Positions 11,137 to 19,716 of a stretch of DNA of 64,000 bases are shown here, in pieces. Position 1 is the first letter of the stretch, and each line of letters starts with the position of its first letter. The DNA lies in the NCBI GenBank assembly GCA_050747445.1, contig JBOGOE010000229.1, positions 2,511 through 66,510 of the forward strand, read 5' to 3'. The position numbers and the translations under genes were made by a program. This DNA comes from Candidatus Polarisedimenticolia bacterium. GTDB taxonomy: Bacteria > Acidobacteriota > Polarisedimenticolia > Gp22-AA2. The notes beneath the pieces were generated by a model that saw only the letters and a program-made list of their open reading frames with translations, did no database searches and was not told the origin of the DNA.

Positions 11137-11922
11137 TCAGCGGATCACCCCGCGCTCGCTGGTGCGCACGAAATCGGCGAGAATCCGGACCTCCTCCACG
11201 CTCCCGAGCTCCGCCTCGAGCCGCGCCAGGGCCTCCGGCTGCGCCAGACGGGAGCGGAACAGGACCCGATAGGCCTGTTTCAGCGCCGCGATGGTCGCGG
11301 CCGGCACCTGCCGGCGCTCCAGACCGATGACATTGATCCCGAAGCTCTTGGCCCGGTTGCCCACCGTCAGGACGTAGGGCAGGGCGTCCTGGGTCAGGAC
11401 CGAGTAGCCGCCGATGTAGGCGTGCCGGCCGACGCGGCAGAACTGGTGCACCCCGGAGAACGCGCCGACGGTCGCGGCGTCCTCGACCGTCACGTGCCCC
11501 GCCAGCGTCGCGGCATTGGCGAAGATGACGTGATTCCCGACCCGGCAATCGTGCGCCACGTGGGTCTGGGCCATGAGCAGGTTGTGCGACCCGATCCGGG
11601 TCACCCCGCCGCCGCCGGCCGTCCCGCGGTGCACCGTGACCCCTTCACGGAACACGTTGTCGTCGCCGACCTCGAGCGTCGTCTCCTCCCCGCGGAACTT
11701 CAGATCCTGCGGCGGCAGCCCGATGGCGGCGAACGGAAAGACCCGGCAGCGGGCCCCGAGCACCGACGGCCCCTCGATGACCGCGTGCGGCCCGACGATG
11801 CATTCCGCTCCCAGGATGACGCGCTCGCCGATGACGCTGAACGGGCCGACGACCGTCCCCTCTCCCAGACGCGCCCCGGGGTCGACGACGGCGGTGGGAT
11901 GGATCCGGGACGGGCCGCTCAC
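11137..11922 (-). CDS. lpxA: Acyl-ACP--UDP-N-acetylglucosamine O-acyltransferase
   Basis: Left-handed beta-helix hexapeptide repeats, [27 protein letters not shown]-terminal helical domain. 4-nt overlap with fabZ. Confidence 0.9.
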
Positions 11923-12401
11923 GGAGCCGGGTCGGGGGTCGTTCCCCCGCCATCGCGATCGACCATGGTGGAGAACAACTCGGCCTCGGCGACCAGATCG
12001 CTCCCGACGTAGGCGTGTCCCCGCAGCAGGGCCGAACGCGAGCGGAGCTTGAGGACCTCGACTTCGAGGCGCAGCTGGTCGCCGGGCGTGACCGGTCTGC
12101 GGAATCTGGCGCCGTCGATCCCGGCGAAGTAGACCAGCTTCGACCCGCGATCCGGGACCGCCCGGAGCAGCAGCACCGCCCCCGCCTGCGCCATCGCCTC
12201 GACGATCAGGACGCCGGGCATGACGGGGTGCCCCGGGAAATGTCCCTGGAAGTACGGCTCATTGACCGTGACATTCTTGATCCCCACGATCCGGCGCCCC
12301 TCCTCGATCGACACGATCCGGTCCACCAGGAGAAAGGGATAGCGGTGGGGCAGAATCGAAAGGATCTGCCGGATGTCCAGGTTGCCGCGGACCTCCTCCA
12401 T
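11919..12401 (-). CDS. fabZ: 3-hydroxyacyl-ACP dehydratase FabZ
   Basis: Hot-dog fold motifs [36 protein letters not shown]. Confidence 0.9.
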
Positions 12402-12412
12402 CGTGCCTCCTC

Positions 12413-13510
12413 TCAGGATCGCGCCGGTGCCGCGCGCCGCGTGCGGCGGCCCGTCCGGGACCGGCGCCGCGGATGGTCCGCCACCGCACCGGCGCCGGAA
12501 GCATGGAGCGTCTCTTCCAGGCGGGCGAGACGCCGGAGCGCGTCGGGCAGCCGCCGCAGCGCCGCCTGCTGGCGCTTCCAGTCGCGGTGGTCCTCCGCGG
12601 GACAGCCCAGCACGTAGGCGCCGGGGGCCACGTCCTGGAGCGCCACGGACGTCGCTCCGACGACCGCTCCCTCGCCGATCTCGAGATGCCCGGAGGCGCC
12701 GGCCCGTCCCGCGAACACCACCCCCCGGCCGATCCGGGTGCTGCCGGCGATCCCGGTCTGCGCCACCAGCACCGCGTCCTCGCCGACCTGCACGTTGTGT
12801 CCGATCTGAACCAGGTTGTCGATCTTCGAACCGCGCCCGATGATCGTGCTGCCAAAGGTGGCGCGATCGATGGTCGCGCAGGCGCCGATCTCCACGTCGT
12901 CTCCGATCCGGACGTTGCCCGCCTGCGGGATCTTGGTGCGCTCCCCGCCTTCCTCGGCGAACCCGAATCCGTCCGCCCCGATGACGGCGTTGGCGTGGAC
13001 CACGACACGGGCGCCGAGTACCGACCGGCGGTAGACCACCACGCCCGGTCCAAGGCGGCTGTCAGGACCGATCGATACGCCGTCGCCGAGCACGACACCC
13101 GGAAGCAGGGCGGCGCGCTCCCCGAGGACGCACACCCGGCCCAGGACGACGAACGGTCCGACCGAAACATCAGCCCCCAGCCGGCATCCCGCCCCGATGA
13201 CGGCGAGAGGACTGATCCCCGGGGGGGACGGCTCCTCCCGGAAAAACAGGCCCATCGCGACCGCCAGCGCGCTGTACGGATTGCCGACGACGATGAGGTT
13301 GCGTCCGGGGAGGATGGCCGCGTCGCGCGCGATCAGGGCCCCCGCCCGCGACGCCTCAGCCGCACGGCGATAGCGCGGCAGCGCGATGAAGCTCAGGTCT
13401 CCGGGTCCGGCTTCGTCGAGCGGGCGGATCCCGGAGATGCGGACACCGGCATCGCCGTGCACGACCCCCTTGAGGCGGGTGGCGATCTCGCCGAGCGTGT
13501 AGGACTCCAA
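12413..13510 (-). CDS. lpxD: UDP-3-O-acylglucosamine N-acyltransferase
   Basis: N-terminal LpxD domain ([10 protein letters not shown]), extensive hexapeptide repeats, length 365 aa. Confidence 0.9.
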
Positions 13511-13530
13511 GCTCGATTCCTGGGGCCGCG

Positions 13531-14127
13531 TCAGTCCTTCGGCGGCTCCTTCGGCTTCTCCGGGGCCTTCTTCACCGGGGGCCTGGCGGCGCCGGATGCC
13601 GGGGCCTTGTGCATCTCGTTGAACTTCGCGATCAGATCCTGGGTGATGTCGATCTGCGGTGCGTTGTAGTCGATGACGCCCCGGTTGAGAATCAGCAGGA
13701 GGTTCTTCTCCTTGCCGAAGGTCTCGATCGTCTGCATCAGCATCTGCTGGAAGCGGCCCTGCACGTCGTTGAGCTGGAATTTCATCTCCTTTGTGGCGTC
13801 CTCCTCCATGCGGTCCCTCTCGGTCCGCTTGGCGAGGATCTCCTTCTGCATCTGGGTGATCTTCTCCTCGCTGAGGCTCGCCTGCTGCTGGCGCAGCCGA
13901 TCCATCATCCCTTCGAGCTCCTGGGACCTCTTGTCGATGTCACCCTGGAGCCGGTTGCGGGCGGCCGTCAGGTCGGTGTTGTACTTCTTGCCGACCTCGG
14001 TCAGCCTCCAGAGCTGTTCCGGATCGAAGACGGCGATGCGCGGAGCCTCGCCCTGGGCGAATGCCGCCGCCGCGCCGATCGCCAGTGCCATCGCGAGCGC
14101 CGGAGCGCCGATGAACCGTCGTGCCAT
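13531..14127 (-). CDS. skp: Periplasmic chaperone Skp/OmpH
   Basis: Signal peptide (MARRFIGAPALAMALAIGAAAAFAQ), coiled-coil-rich OmpH-like body. Start at internal ATG 14125-14127. Position between bamA and lpxD. Confidence 0.8.
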   Translation of the reverse strand: MARRFIGAPALAMALAIGAAAAFAQGEAPRIAVFDPEQLWRLTEVGKKYNTDLTAARNRLQGDIDKRSQELEGMMDRLRQQQASLSEEKITQMQKEILAKRTERDRMEEDATKEMKFQLNDVQGRFQQMLMQTIETFGKEKNLLLILNRGVIDYNAPQIDITQDLIAKFNEMHKAPASGAARPPVKKAPEKPKEPPKD

Positions 14128-14198
14128 GCGTTTCTCCTCCCCTCGCCGATGCAATCGTTGACTATACCACAGGCCCGCGGGGCCCCCGGACCCGCGGC

Positions 14199-17100
14199 TC
14201 AGAACGTCGAACCGATGCTGAAGATGAAATTGCTGGCGTCCTCTCCGGGACGCGGGTTCTGGATGAAGCCGTAGATCAGCCGCAACGGCGCCTGGAACAC
14301 CGGCAGGTGGAAGCGCATCTCCAGACCGTAATCGACCCGCATGTCGTCGAACGCGATCCTCTGCCCGTCGTCGAAGGCGTTCCCCGCATCATAGAACAGG
14401 GAGAACTCCACCGTGTCGGTCAGCGGGATGGTGTACTCGGCGTTGAGCAGCACGTACTGGTTGCCCCCCGGGAACACCGTGCCGAACACCCCGTCACCGT
14501 TGGTGTCCTCCCCCGCGTCGAGGACACAGTTGCCCCCGAGGGCGGATTCGAGCACCGGATTTTCCGGGTTGCCCGGGTCCGCGAGCTGGTTCCCGTCCAT
14601 GTTGGGATCATCGGGGGGGCAGAAAGGGGTCCAGACGCCGTCGAACAGGTCCTCCGCCGCATCCAGGGTCCCGTTGCCGTTGAGGTCCTCGGTATCGAGC
14701 GCGCCGTTCCCGTTTCCGTCTTCGCCCGGGTCGAGGACCCCGTTGCGATTCAGATCCTCTGTGTCGAGGGTGCCGTTGCCATTGAGATCCTCACGGGGGT
14801 CGAGGACCCCGTCGCCGTCGAGGTCCTCCGGAAAATCGATCCGTCCGTTTCCGTTGAGGTCCAGATCGCGGCGTGACGGGCTGACCTCGCGCGTGCGGAA
14901 GACGCGCAGGCTCCGCTCCCCTCCCAGATAGAACCGCTCGAAAAACGGGACGTCCCGGCCCCCCAGCGCGCGGACATACGAGTAGGACGCGTTGAGCCCT
15001 ATGTAATGCCGGCGCGCGAATCCCGGCAGGTAAAGCGTCCCCTCCACCCGCGGCTTGACGAACCAGTTGTCACCGCCCAGGAAGCTGCCGGCGTATTCCA
15101 GGGCGGTCTGGATCCGGTAGCCGCGCGTGGGGCGGAAATAGTTGTTGCGGGTGTCGATGGTGTAGATCGCGGTGAGGCTGCTGGTGGAGGTGGTCGTGCT
15201 CGACCCGAACCCCGCCTGGGTGGGCAGGAAGTCGACGGTTTCGTATCCGTACGCCACGTCGACCCGGCCGAAGTGACCCAGGAGGCGGCCGAGGACCAGA
15301 CTCCCGCCGCTGCCCAGGCGACGGAATCCGACGTAGTCGCTCTGACGGCGGAAGACGGAGAACCCCAGGGTCCACGGCTTGCCCAGAAACCACGGCTCGG
15401 TGAAGTTGATCGAGTACCGGTCGGCGCGCGAACCGGCCTGGAGGAACAGGGAGAAGATCTCGCCCCGACCCAGGAAGTTGCGGGTCGCGTAGGACGCCTG
15501 AAAGAAGCCCCCCTCGATCCCCGACACGCCGCCGCCGACCTGGATCTCGTTGCGGCTGGATTCGATCCCCTGGACCTCGATATCGACCCGATCGCTCCCG
15601 GGCTGTGGTTTCACGACCGGGTCCTGGCCGATCTGGAAATACCCGAGCTGGGCGATCTTCCTCACCCCGAGGCGCATCCGCCGGACGTTGAAGAGATCCT
15701 CCTCGTAGAGCGGCATCTCGCGCCGCAGGACGCCGTCGCGCGTCGTGGTATTCCCGGTGAACTCGATTCGATCCACGAAGTATTTGCGGTCCTCGGTGAT
15801 CGACAGCTTGAGATCGGCGCTGGTCTCGCGCCGGTTGATCTGCGGATCGATCGAGACGTAGAAGTAGCCGCGTTCCCCGTAGTCCTCCTCCAGGCGCTTG
15901 GCCCCGGCCTTCATCGCCGCCTCGTTGAACACGGACCCGCTGCGGAGCGGCATCCGGGCCATGATCTCGCGCGTGCTGAAGACCGTGTTTCCCTCCACCT
16001 CGATCTCCCCGACCCGGTACTGCGGACCCTCTTCGATGGGGACCGTCAGGTGGACGAACTTCCTGGCGCCCCGGGCCTCTTTGCGGCGCGCCTCGAGCTC
16101 GGCTTTGACCCTTTTGCGGCGCTGTTTTTCGGTCTCGCCGGGGGGCGGCGCCGTCGGCGCCGGTGGTTCCCAGAAGGCATCCTCGGGCTCTTCCGCGTCG
16201 GCGGCGGGCGGTTCGCCGTGCCGCCGTTTCTTGCCCTTCGCCGTCAGGACCTCGACGATCTCCGGCTGGACCTTCACGTCGAGATACCCGCCGCTCCGGT
16301 AGGCGGCCCGGATCCCCTCGGCGTCCTGGTCGAACTTGGCGGGGTGGTACAGGTTCTTCGACGAGGCCCACGAGGTGAGCCAGAAGGCCTGCTTCGTCAG
16401 CTTCAGCATCTTCCGGAGGCGGCGATCGTTGAAGACCGTGTTGCCGACGAACTCGATGCTCTTGATGCGCGTTTTCGAGCCCTCGCGGATGTAGAAGGTG
16501 ACGTCACGCTGACCCTGCCGGGAGGGGGTCAGGCGGGAGCGCACCCTGGCCTCGAGATAGCCCTTCTCGGCCAGCAGGTGCTCGATCGCCGACTCGGCCC
16601 GCTTGAGGACCGAGAAATCGATCGGCTGTCCGCGGCGCACGTCCGCCTTGGCCTGGTTGAGCCGCTCGAGGATGGTCGATTCGGTCACCGCCTTCATCCC
16701 CACGAAGGCGACCCCGGTCACCAGGGGCCGATCCTGGACATGAAAGATCAGATCCACGACCCCGGCCGACCTCTGGCGCGACTCGACGATCAGGTCGTCG
16801 AACAGCCCCAGCTCCCACAGGCGGCGGAACTCCTCCTGAAGCCCCCGCTCGTCGAACGGGTCTCCCGGCTTCAGATTCAGGTTGCTGAAGAAGGCGGCGT
16901 CCGAGACCCGTACGTTGCCGTCGACGAAGATCCTGCCGATCCGGCCCCCCCCGGCCGCCGTCGGGTCCTCCCCCTCCCCCGTCGCCGGCTCGGCCTCCCC
17001 GGCCGGCGGGTCCCCGGGCTCCGGCTCGACGGTCGCAGGTTGGGCGGACTCCGCCGCCTCCAGCTGCGGCTCGGGCGCCCGGGGCGGCGCCCCCTCCGAA

Positions 17101-17207
17101 GGGGGCGACTGCGCCCGGATCGGCCCGGCCAGCAGAAGGCCGAGGACGCCACCGGCGACGGCGAGCGCCGGCAGGCGGGGCGGACGGGGGTTGCGGAGTC
17201 GTTTCAC
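14199..17207 (-). CDS. bamA: Outer membrane protein assembly factor BamA, with large Asp/Asn/Gly-repeat insertion in extracellular loop 6
   Basis: POTRA repeats, conserved L6 motif FYLGGERSLRVF, C-terminal barrel strands ending ...FIFSIGSTF. GTG start at 17205-17207 gives a canonical signal peptide (VKRLRNPRPPRLPALAVAGGVLGLLLAGPIRAQS) and avoids overlap with clpC. Confidence 0.85.
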   Translation of the reverse strand: MKRLRNPRPPRLPALAVAGGVLGLLLAGPIRAQSPPSEGAPPRAPEPQLEAAESAQPATVEPEPGDPPAGEAEPATGEGEDPTAAGGGRIGRIFVDGNVRVSDAAFFSNLNLKPGDPFDERGLQEEFRRLWELGLFDDLIVESRQRSAGVVDLIFHVQDRPLVTGVAFVGMKAVTESTILERLNQAKADVRRGQPIDFSVLKRAESAIEHLLAEKGYLEARVRSRLTPSRQGQRDVTFYIREGSKTRIKSIEFVGNTVFNDRRLRKMLKLTKQAFWLTSWASSKNLYHPAKFDQDAEGIRAAYRSGGYLDVKVQPEIVEVLTAKGKKRRHGEPPAADAEEPEDAFWEPPAPTAPPPGETEKQRRKRVKAELEARRKEARGARKFVHLTVPIEEGPQYRVGEIEVEGNTVFSTREIMARMPLRSGSVFNEAAMKAGAKRLEEDYGERGYFYVSIDPQINRRETSADLKLSITEDRKYFVDRIEFTGNTTTRDGVLRREMPLYEEDLFNVRRMRLGVRKIAQLGYFQIGQDPVVKPQPGSDRVDIEVQGIESSRNEIQVGGGVSGIEGGFFQASYATRNFLGRGEIFSLFLQAGSRADRYSINFTEPWFLGKPWTLGFSVFRRQSDYVGFRRLGSGGSLVLGRLLGHFGRVDVAYGYETVDFLPTQAGFGSSTTTSTSSLTAIYTIDTRNNYFRPTRGYRIQTALEYAGSFLGGDNWFVKPRVEGTLYLPGFARRHYIGLNASYSYVRALGGRDVPFFERFYLGGERSLRVFRTREVSPSRRDLDLNGNGRIDFPEDLDGDGVLDPREDLNGNGTLDTEDLNRNGVLDPGEDGNGNGALDTEDLNGNGTLDAAEDLFDGVWTPFCPPDDPNMDGNQLADPGNPENPVLESALGGNCVLDAGEDTNGDGVFGTVFPGGNQYVLLNAEYTIPLTDTVEFSLFYDAGNAFDDGQRIAFDDMRVDYGLEMRFHLPVFQAPLRLIYGFIQNPRPGEDASNFIFSIGSTF

Positions 17208-17292
17208 CGGGGCTCCGGAGCGCCCTACGGCGTGCGCCGGGAGGTCCCGGTGTTCGGGAGCCGGGGCGGCCGCAATAGGCAGGAGGGCGGAT

Positions 17293-19716
<2,424 letters not shown>

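Follow-up and report, generated by a model that had tools for sequence, protein, structure and literature searches.

The subject of this study is a 64-kb stretch ("the window", to the full length of which all positions refer) of contig JBOGOE010000229.1 of Candidatus Polarisedimenticolia, and in particular the bamA gene it contains. Extracellular loop 6 (L6) of the encoded BamA carries a tandem array of eight to nine loops of the EF-hand type, located directly behind the L6 motif, and this array is conserved in a whole clade of Acidobacteriota. BamA is essential and is a drug and vaccine target, and among the functional elements of the Omp85 superfamily its L6 is the most conserved. The array is a real, conserved, and apparently undescribed elaboration of BamA, and no description of such an array in BamA L6 was found in the published literature, the coverage of which was incomplete. 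While the calcium-loop type as such is known, its tandem format in this lineage-specific extracellular elaboration of BamA is apparently undescribed. Judged from its sequence, the array most likely represents a Ca2+-stiffened extracellular cap or platform on the BamA dome, a reading that we hold with moderate confidence.

Location of the Insert in Extracellular Loop 6

The gene is on the minus strand, and residue numbers follow the longest open reading frame (ORF), the first residue of which corresponds to window position 17450. The protein is BamA, as the initial annotation had stated. It scores 477.6 bits with TIGR03303, the NCBIfam equivalog model for BamA (cut-off 297.15 bits), and Pfam detects POTRA in five stretches (E = 5.1e-58) and Omp85 from residue 658 onward (E = 2.8e-47).

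The L6 motif was aligned to its counterparts in Escherichia coli and Salmonella, and phmmer as well as a direct alignment with BamA of E. coli K-12 place the LRVF of the window BamA on the VRGF of E. coli. A phmmer search against the sequences of the Protein Data Bank (PDB) aligned YSYVRALGGRDVPFFERFYLGGERSLRVFRTREVSPS with residues 635-671 of E. coli BamA, which include VRGF, and TDTVEFSLFYDAGNAFD with E. coli ANSVRTSFFWDMGTVWD. The segment FFERFYLGGERSLRVFRTREVSPS was also aligned with E. coli BamA by phmmer, and the strand-12 segment GGNQYVLLNAEYTIPL, at which the barrel resumes, aligns with E. coli GGNAMAVASLEFITP. In the direct alignment, the array fills the same gap as a stretch of 43 residues of the K-12 protein. 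These alignments bear out the earlier proposal that the insert directly follows the L6 motif. Within 75 BamA proteins of Acidobacteriota the Arg of the motif is invariant and the Phe nearly so. The Gly is replaced by V, A, L, M, N, or I throughout this part of the phylum (LRVF, LRAF, LRLF, PRVF), and the BamA proteins of Blastocatellia retain IRGY.

An AlphaFold2 model of residues 583-1083, based on an alignment of 75 sequences, has 16 strands with a predicted local distance difference test score (pLDDT) above 90 outside L6. The top Foldseek matches of this barrel model are E. coli BamA chains (E of about 1e-22, target-normalized TM-score of at most 0.75). In the model the insert is found between strand 11 (ORF residues 816-825) and strand 12 (ORF residues 998-1009, residues 416-427 of the construct). 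Alignment and predicted topology thus both place the insert in extracellular L6. A location in a POTRA linker or in a periplasmic turn, which had been named as an alternative, is ruled out by the same alignment and by the position between strands 11 and 12.

The stretch between the motif and strand 12 comprises 143 residues, compared to 29-66 residues in array-less Acidobacteriota and 43 residues in E. coli. Because every BamA has 30-65 residues at this site, the net insertion amounts to about 95-100 residues and not to the 140 residues that had been given for it. The place that had been assigned to the insert (14457-14880) was right, and its limits had to be shifted to 14469-14897 on the minus strand.

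The sub-loop that follows the L6 motif is surface-exposed in solved BamA structures. E. coli remains viable when this variable part of its L6 is deleted; the part varies between species and lies within the loops that are recognized by the surface toxin CdiA (PMC3735181). The array is thus located in a known permissive sub-loop, and not in the lumen-buried tip of L6. As the E. coli site is already variable and can be deleted, the tolerance of an insert is less surprising than was originally implied.

Repeat Anatomy of the Array

The 143-residue stretch is highly acidic, as it contains 24 Asp and 10 Glu, but no Lys and seven Arg, and has a net charge of -27; it also contains 16 Asn and 22 Gly. 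Its core is formed by six contiguous loops, in the order DLNGNGRIDFPE, DLDGDGVLDPRE, DLNGNGTLDTE, DLNRNGVLDPGE, DGNGNGALDTE, and DLNGNGTLDAAE, with spacings of 12, 12, 11, 12, and 11 residues. All six agree with an EF-hand loop pattern of the PROSITE type at positions 1-12 (D1, N/D3, N/D5, G6, L/I8, D9, E/D12). In the six-frame translation of the whole window this pattern occurs seven times, and six of the seven occurrences are in the array. The shorter motif Dx[DN]x[DN]G is found nine times in the insert, compared to a mean of 0.27 and a maximum of four in 20,000 composition-preserving shuffles.

With the isolated insert as query, two Pfam families exceeded their cut-offs, i.e., EF-hand_5 (34.5 bits, cut-off 25.9) and EF-hand_1 (28.5 bits, cut-off 25.4), in agreement with the earlier assignment of the repeats to the calcium-loop type. 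The profile matches are limited to the loop part (profile positions 7-21), and the contiguity of the loops, which are spaced by only 11 or 12 residues, leaves no room for flanking helices. Sequence and model thus indicate that the insert consists of EF-hand-like loops and is not an EF-hand domain. A dedicated family was not found in Pfam or NCBIfam, where the matches were limited to the loop portion of EF-hand models, to 12 residues of DUF7151, and to CglD with an E-value of 0.6. Among the PDB sequences, the best matches were weak and confined to the level of loops; they comprised lanmodulin (E = 0.007), CaBP1, calmodulin loops, and SdrD.

The six loops are followed by a Cys-bounded module with the degenerate loop DPNMDGNQLAD and by a terminal loop that contains DTNGDGVFG and leads into strand 12. 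C944 and C975, which bound the module, are the only Cys residues of the mature protein. The earlier statement that a Cys pair accompanies at least eight repeats is therefore a fair description, the count being composed of the six contiguous loops, the degenerate loop, and the terminal loop. The (E)DTNGDG of the terminal loop is conserved across the crown group of array-bearing proteins. In the window BamA, the Cys-bounded module has an extension of 8-10 residues (NPENPVLESAL), which is present in none of the relatives. A Cys pair also occurs in array-less sister proteins, and the basal array forms have no Cys.

On the DNA level, units of 36 and 33 nt alternate, which results in a period of 69 nt, and Tandem Repeats Finder (TRF) reported 2.3 copies of this period at 14670-14828 with 73% matches. 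The length of 36-39 nt that had been given for the DNA repeats is therefore not correct. The nucleotide identity between units is only 39-73%, and no exact repeat exceeds 16 nt. They have thus diverged too far for a recent slippage event.

Distribution and Stepwise Expansion of the Array

The array was found in frame and at the same L6 site in more than 40 independent contigs or proteins, including 16 proteins, three GTDB species representatives, and 25 metagenome contigs. The named relatives are metagenome-assembled genomes of Acidobacteriota or Candidatus Polarisedimenticolia. In a search that returned 733 homologs, the top 15 covered 100% of the barrel query, and all others aligned only up to the insert. 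The length of the post-motif stretch was 59 residues in P0041, 82 residues in P0013-15, 107 residues in P0011, and 131-161 residues in P0001-P0012. Among the best 80 loci of a scan of 185,579 GTDB species representatives, arrays of 160-180 residues occurred only in L001-L003, and among the 150 best-scoring proteins of 1.84 billion representatives at 50% identity there were five clusters of array-bearing BamA proteins. The metagenome contigs were found with a degenerate DNA pattern for EDTNGDG[VI]FGxx[FY]PGG, and their inserts have lengths of 106, 130, 137, 156-160, 165, or 179 residues.

In a neighbor-joining tree that was calculated from the barrel columns only, the array bearers form a single clade, and their sister group consists of array-less forms with a stretch of about 50 residues. 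The array is therefore lineage-specific, as had been proposed, and array-less stretches are found elsewhere in the phylum. The basal members of the clade have stretches of 62-85 residues with three to six loops, followed by a form with 110 residues and eight loops, and then by the crown group with 134-164 residues; the loop numbers rise in a graded series of 3, 5, 8, and 9-11. The array thus had a single origin and was expanded stepwise. An alignment of the arrays (A2) revealed two paralogous Cys-bounded modules (C-x-D-x-N-x-N-G-x-x-D-x-x-E-x-D-x-G-N-C), which are present or absent among relatives. The first module is absent from the window BamA and from P0001, and the second is absent from P0009 and P0011. 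P0001 is the closest relative of the window BamA (77-80% identity) and has the same spacing of the six loops. Among the relatives the inserts have lengths of 59-179 residues and modules were gained or lost, and a central core of units with 11, 12, and 11 residues is retained in nearly all of the larger arrays.

Other expansions have occurred at the same site. A separate clade (P0047, P0055, P0062) has one EF-hand-type loop, DFDRNGDGILDRND, the origin of which appears to be independent of the array clade. A descent of the array from these single-loop forms was considered and rejected, because they belong to a different clade of the tree. BamA proteins of the Blastocatellia type (L056, L058-L060, L065-L075, L077-L080) have an unrelated, non-repetitive L6 stretch of 78-97 residues with a Cys pair. 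Across Acidobacteriota the length of L6 at this site varies from 15 to 180 residues. The post-motif site is a general insertion hot spot in this phylum, of which the array is the extreme case. Five loci (L002, L059, L060, L061, L069) have titles that refer to Candidatus Cryosericum, Heliobacteriaceae, or Patescibacteria, but their bamA genes are of the Acidobacteriota type, and the L002 contig has clpC-bamA-skp-lpxD of the Acidobacteriota type, which suggests binning or labeling errors.

Conservation of the Loops

In 160 loops of 25 clade members, D1, N/D3, and N/D5 are conserved in 100% of the cases, followed by G6 (97%), D9 (92%), E/D12 (91%), and L/I/F8 (86%), and positions 2, 4, 10, and 11 vary. 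When the same pairs of proteins were compared, the insert had 56-78% identity to the window protein, the N-terminal part of the barrel 49-81%, and the C-terminal part 65-84%. By this measure the insert is as conserved as the barrel, and the pattern is that expected for the scaffold of a metal site under purifying selection, and not that of a hypervariable decoy or a neutral acidic tail.

Occurrence of the Repeat in Other Proteins

A search with the insert revealed the 11/12-residue unit also in prepilin-like and hypothetical proteins. In two GspH/FimT pseudopilins (P0132, P0143), units of the form EDxNGNGxLDxx are inserted into the GspH domain. The representatives at 50% identity yielded a further 82 proteins that are not BamA and contain at least three loops. 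Many of them are 1,000-6,000 residues long and have 20-38 loops together with Big_1, Invasin_D3, Beta_helix, Glucodextran_B, or Big_6 domains. Giant extracellular proteins with arrays of 20-38 loops and with Big_1, Beta_helix, or Glucodextran_B domains include P0159-P0164, P0168, and P0181, and the unit was also noted in L108 and L109. In these arrays, Pfam matches are confined to the EF-hand loop and to 12 residues of DUF7151.

The window itself encodes a large FG-GAP protein (Table 1) to which the array had been likened. It matches TSP_3 with an E-value of 2.2e-12 and has 11 sites of the DxDxDG type, which belong to another repeat family than the BamA array. The insert matched neither TSP_3 (PF02412) nor TSP3_bac (PF18884) at E values of up to 1. 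Homology of the array with the repeats of this neighbor was therefore rejected, and the two are related only generically.

A Putative Calcium-Stiffened Cap and Alternative Explanations

It has been found that Dx[DN]xDG sites in many different folds bind Ca2+ in a nearly identical manner (PMC3123361). In the mechanism that we propose, the surface-exposed, variable half of L6 would have been rebuilt into about eight to nine helix-less loops of the EF-hand type (Dx[DN]x[DN]G). Each unit of 11 or 12 residues would hold one Ca2+ ion with D1, N/D3, N/D5, the backbone at position 7, D9, and E/D12. Neighboring sites may share a carboxylate, because position 12 of an 11-residue unit is Asp1 of the next unit. 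Packing between the loops would be provided by conserved hydrophobic residues at positions 2, 7, and 8, and a single disulfide bond between C944 and C975 would staple the distal module. In the absence of Ca2+ the stretch, with its charge of -27, would be expected to be disordered, and upon Ca2+ binding it would condense to a rigid body without secondary structure on top of the BamA dome. There the array would act as a structural cap or docking platform, and would not belong to the catalytic lateral gate. The insertion of the same array into loops of both BamA and GspH makes it probable that its two ends are near each other, which in turn suggests a compact body and not a rod.

Several observations weigh against this proposal. 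The pLDDT of the insert was only 39-58 in the context of the barrel, and its mean was 53 when the insert was modeled alone from an alignment of 27 sequences. No secondary structure, helices included, was predicted for the insert in the AlphaFold2 models, and Foldseek retrieved no structural match for the insert model. Low pLDDT values and the lack of a fold match fit a metal-dependent structure without secondary structure, such as that of the thrombospondin type-3 calcium core, but do not prove it. Furthermore, true EF-hands have flanking helices to position the ligands, and the loops are devoid of these; units of 11 residues differ from the canonical length of 12, and low-complexity composition could inflate part of the apparent conservation. 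Lastly, no gene for a partner protein is indicated in the window or in the related loci.

One alternative is that the array is in essence a docking platform for an extracellular partner, e.g., a surface lipoprotein of BAM (the machinery for beta-barrel assembly), an S-layer, or a Ca2+-bridged exopolysaccharide, and that Ca2+ only shapes it. A precedent exists in Bacteroidota, because the 76-residue L5 insertion of their BamA binds the extracellular BamM and the L6 extension contacts BamP (PMC12611786), and both the conservation of the array, which equals that of the barrel and would fit a binding surface, and the presence of the same repeat in adhesin-like giant proteins point in the same direction. 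However, only clpC and skp-lpxD-fabZ-lpxA, and no candidate partner gene, are linked to bamA in the window and in 29 related loci, there is free variation at positions 2, 4, 10, and 11, which are not ligands and are presumably exposed, and whole modules were gained or lost among close relatives, which is hard to square with a fixed interface. We consider this alternative unlikely. An even lower probability is assigned to a role as a shield or decoy, which would cover the conserved dome against phages, contact-dependent inhibition toxins, or BamA-targeting peptides and would evolve under conflict. L6 and L7 of E. coli do form the receptor epitope for CdiA-EC93, which varies strongly between species (PMC3735181), and module content and loop number differ among the relatives of the window BamA (inserts of 59, 82, 106, 130, 137, 143, 156-165, and 179 residues). 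But the identity of the insert equals that of the barrel, the ligand positions are conserved to 90-100%, as is typical for purifying and not for diversifying selection, and the central core persists in nearly all larger arrays.

It seems quite improbable that the array is a neutral by-product of slippage in a permissive loop, i.e., an acidic, disordered tail without specific metal binding or a role. It is true that the E. coli site tolerates deletion and replacement (PMC3735181), that L6 at this site has between 15 and 180 residues within the phylum, that AlphaFold2 predicts no order, and that acidic regions readily yield Dx[DN]xDG motifs (PMC3123361). A disordered acidic brush, however, would need neither the conserved Gly6 (97%) nor the hydrophobic residue at position 8, the protein pattern was retained although the DNA units are old and have diverged, the array persists across lineages with barrels that are only about 50% identical, and the same unit is present in many unrelated extracellular proteins. 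Tandem repeats in metagenome assemblies of high GC content (70%) can be mis-assembled, by collapse or expansion of the repeats, and TRF reports a period of 69 nt. Yet an artefact of assembly or annotation, a chimeric contig, or a location outside L6 is hardly conceivable, because the DNA units are only 39-73% identical and share at most 16 nt exactly, P0001 has an identical six-loop spacing, more than 40 independent sequences have the array in frame at the same site, and alignment as well as model topology place it in L6. Assembly collapse, which had been named as a caveat, was thus rejected on the basis of the diverged units and the independent contigs.

The Ca2+-stiffened cap might also be part of a wider phenomenon. 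Its 11/12-residue unit, EDxNGNGxLDxx, could represent a calcium-binding repeat that is extracellular, widespread, and so far undescribed, in the form of a helix-less "EF-loop solenoid or wire". Such a repeat would fit into loops of scaffolds as unrelated as BamA L6 and GspH/FimT pseudopilins and could be strung together in arrays of 20-38 units in giant surface proteins. In BamA it would then act either as a Ca2+-dependent cap that couples the state of the dome, and the insertion or release of outer membrane proteins, to external calcium, or as an anchor for an extracellular component of BAM in Acidobacteriota. This extension is speculative, and we regard it as doubtful in its entirety.

The bamA Gene and Its Neighborhood

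In this uncultured lineage of Acidobacteriota, the gene is the housekeeping bamA and is located at 14199-17207 or, in its longest form, 14199-17450. The longest ORF in the ORF list (14199-17450) runs into the 3' end of clpC, the stop codon of which is at 17293. The GTG at 17207 is the only start codon beyond clpC, a GGAG precedes it by 9 nt, and it is the first codon of a signal-peptide-like sequence, VKRLRNPRPPRLPALAVAGGVLGLLLAGPIRAQ/S. This GTG is therefore probably the true start, and the 81 codons at the beginning of the ORF are unlikely to be translated. The features are summarized in Table 1.

Upstream of bamA lies clpC, and skp, lpxD, fabZ, and lpxA follow downstream. Array-bearing contigs retain the order clpC-bamA-skp-lpxD-fabZ-lpxA wherever they reach far enough. 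A search of the window with Rfam retrieved nothing.

Apart from the array, the protein has two further lineage-specific or low-complexity regions. A second insertion of about 60 charged, Pro-rich, low-complexity residues is found in the POTRA region (about 16086-16268, minus strand; ORF residues of about 395-455). It includes KGKKRRHGEPPAADAEEPEDAFWEPPAPTAPPPGETEKQRRKRVKAELEARRKEARGARK, is common to the array clade, and has another form in P0047. The linker between the signal peptide and POTRA1 consists of about 55 low-complexity residues rich in Pro, Glu, and Ala (about 16940-17108, minus strand; ORF residues of about 115-170).

Table 1. Features of the bamA region and positions in the 64-kb window.
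Feature	Position	Strand	Details and basis
bamA, probable true gene	14199..17207	-	GTG start 17207; stop codon 14199-14201
POTRA1-5 periplasmic region	15480..16937	-	about ORF aa 172-657; Pfam POTRA
Omp85 16-strand beta-barrel	14202..15479	-	ORF aa 658-1083; Pfam, AlphaFold2
L6 motif FYLGGERSLRVF	14898..14933	-	aa 840-851; LRVF in place of (V/I)RG(F/Y)
Expanded L6 stretch behind the motif	14469..14897	-	aa 852-994, 143 aa, up to GGNQYVLLNAEY
Six contiguous EF-hand-type loops	14652..14861	-	aa 864-933; 12/11-residue units, Pfam EF-hand, TRF
Cys-bounded module, C944 to C975, with degenerate loop	14526..14621	-	sequence, alignment A2
Terminal loop DTNGDGVFGTVF	14472..14507	-	aa 982-993, leads into strand 12
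Resumption of the barrel, strand 12, GGNQYVLLNAEYTIPL	14421..14468	-	aa 995-1010; AlphaFold2, alignment
skp	13531-14154	-	ORF list; Pfam OmpH match
lpxD	12413-13510	-	ORF list
fabZ	11919-12401	-	ORF list
lpxA	11137-11922	-	ORF list
Block skp to lpxA, downstream of bamA	11137..14154	-	ORF list
FG-GAP/TSP3 neighbor, 1280 aa	4072-7914	+	Pfam: six FG-GAP_3, four TSP_3

Implications and Comparison with Known Systems

As the array exemplifies, a putatively structured module of about 100 residues can be accommodated in the surface half of L6 across a whole lineage. Together with the results for Bacteroidota, this suggests that lineage-specific extracellular architectures of BAM exist outside Proteobacteria. 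The array is also a natural scaffold for the grafting of loops into BamA. The repeat is common in giant surface proteins of environmental origin and in pseudopilins, yet Pfam contains no dedicated family for it. A structure in the Ca2+-bound state would define a new type of calcium-binding repeat, from which the annotation of many "hypothetical" proteins would benefit.

Several known repeats resemble the array. The RTX nonapeptide repeats have the motif GGxGxDxUx with a period of nine and form a beta-roll. Like the array, the RTX beta-roll consists of extracellular, acidic tandem repeats, which are expected to be disordered without Ca2+ and to fold outside the cell. No RTX family was matched by the insert in the Pfam scan, and its unit has 11 or 12 residues and the motif DxNxNGxLDxxE instead of GGxGxDxUx. 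Thrombospondin (TSP) type-3 repeats are poor in secondary structure and surround many Ca2+ ions; disulfides staple them, and neighboring sites share carboxylates. They likewise consist of contiguous, Asp/Asn-rich loops of the DxDxDG type, whereas the array is rich in Asn (DxNxNG), has units of 11 or 12 residues, and contains only one Cys pair and not a Cys in each repeat. For the "calcium core" of the TSP type-3 repeats, PMC3123361 cites Kvansakul et al. (2004). With the canonical EF-hand and the wider set of Dx[DN]xDG calcium sites (PMC3123361) the array shares the 12-residue loop, the ligands at positions 1-3-5-(7)-9-12, Gly6, and the hydrophobic nature of position 8, but it lacks the entering and exiting helices, its loops abut without a spacer, and half of them have 11 residues.

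Elaborations of extracellular BamA loops that are lineage-wide, as in this case, are known from Bacteroidota (L5 +76 residues, L6 +16 residues). In Flavobacterium johnsoniae, the 76-residue L5 domain of BamA binds the extracellular BamM, and the 16-residue extension of L6 caps the mouth of the pore (PMC12611786). The inserts of Bacteroidota are formed by beta-sheets or beta-strands and have BamM and BamP as partners, whereas the insert of the window BamA is a metal-loop-type repeat in L6 without predicted secondary structure. The nearest counterpart in position is the L6 sub-loop of E. coli BamA (about residues 664-706 of the precursor), which is located at the same place, is also acidic, and also contains one Cys pair. 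However, the E. coli sub-loop has 43 residues and neither repeats nor a calcium-loop motif, while that of the window BamA has 143 residues and eight to nine loops of the EF-hand type.

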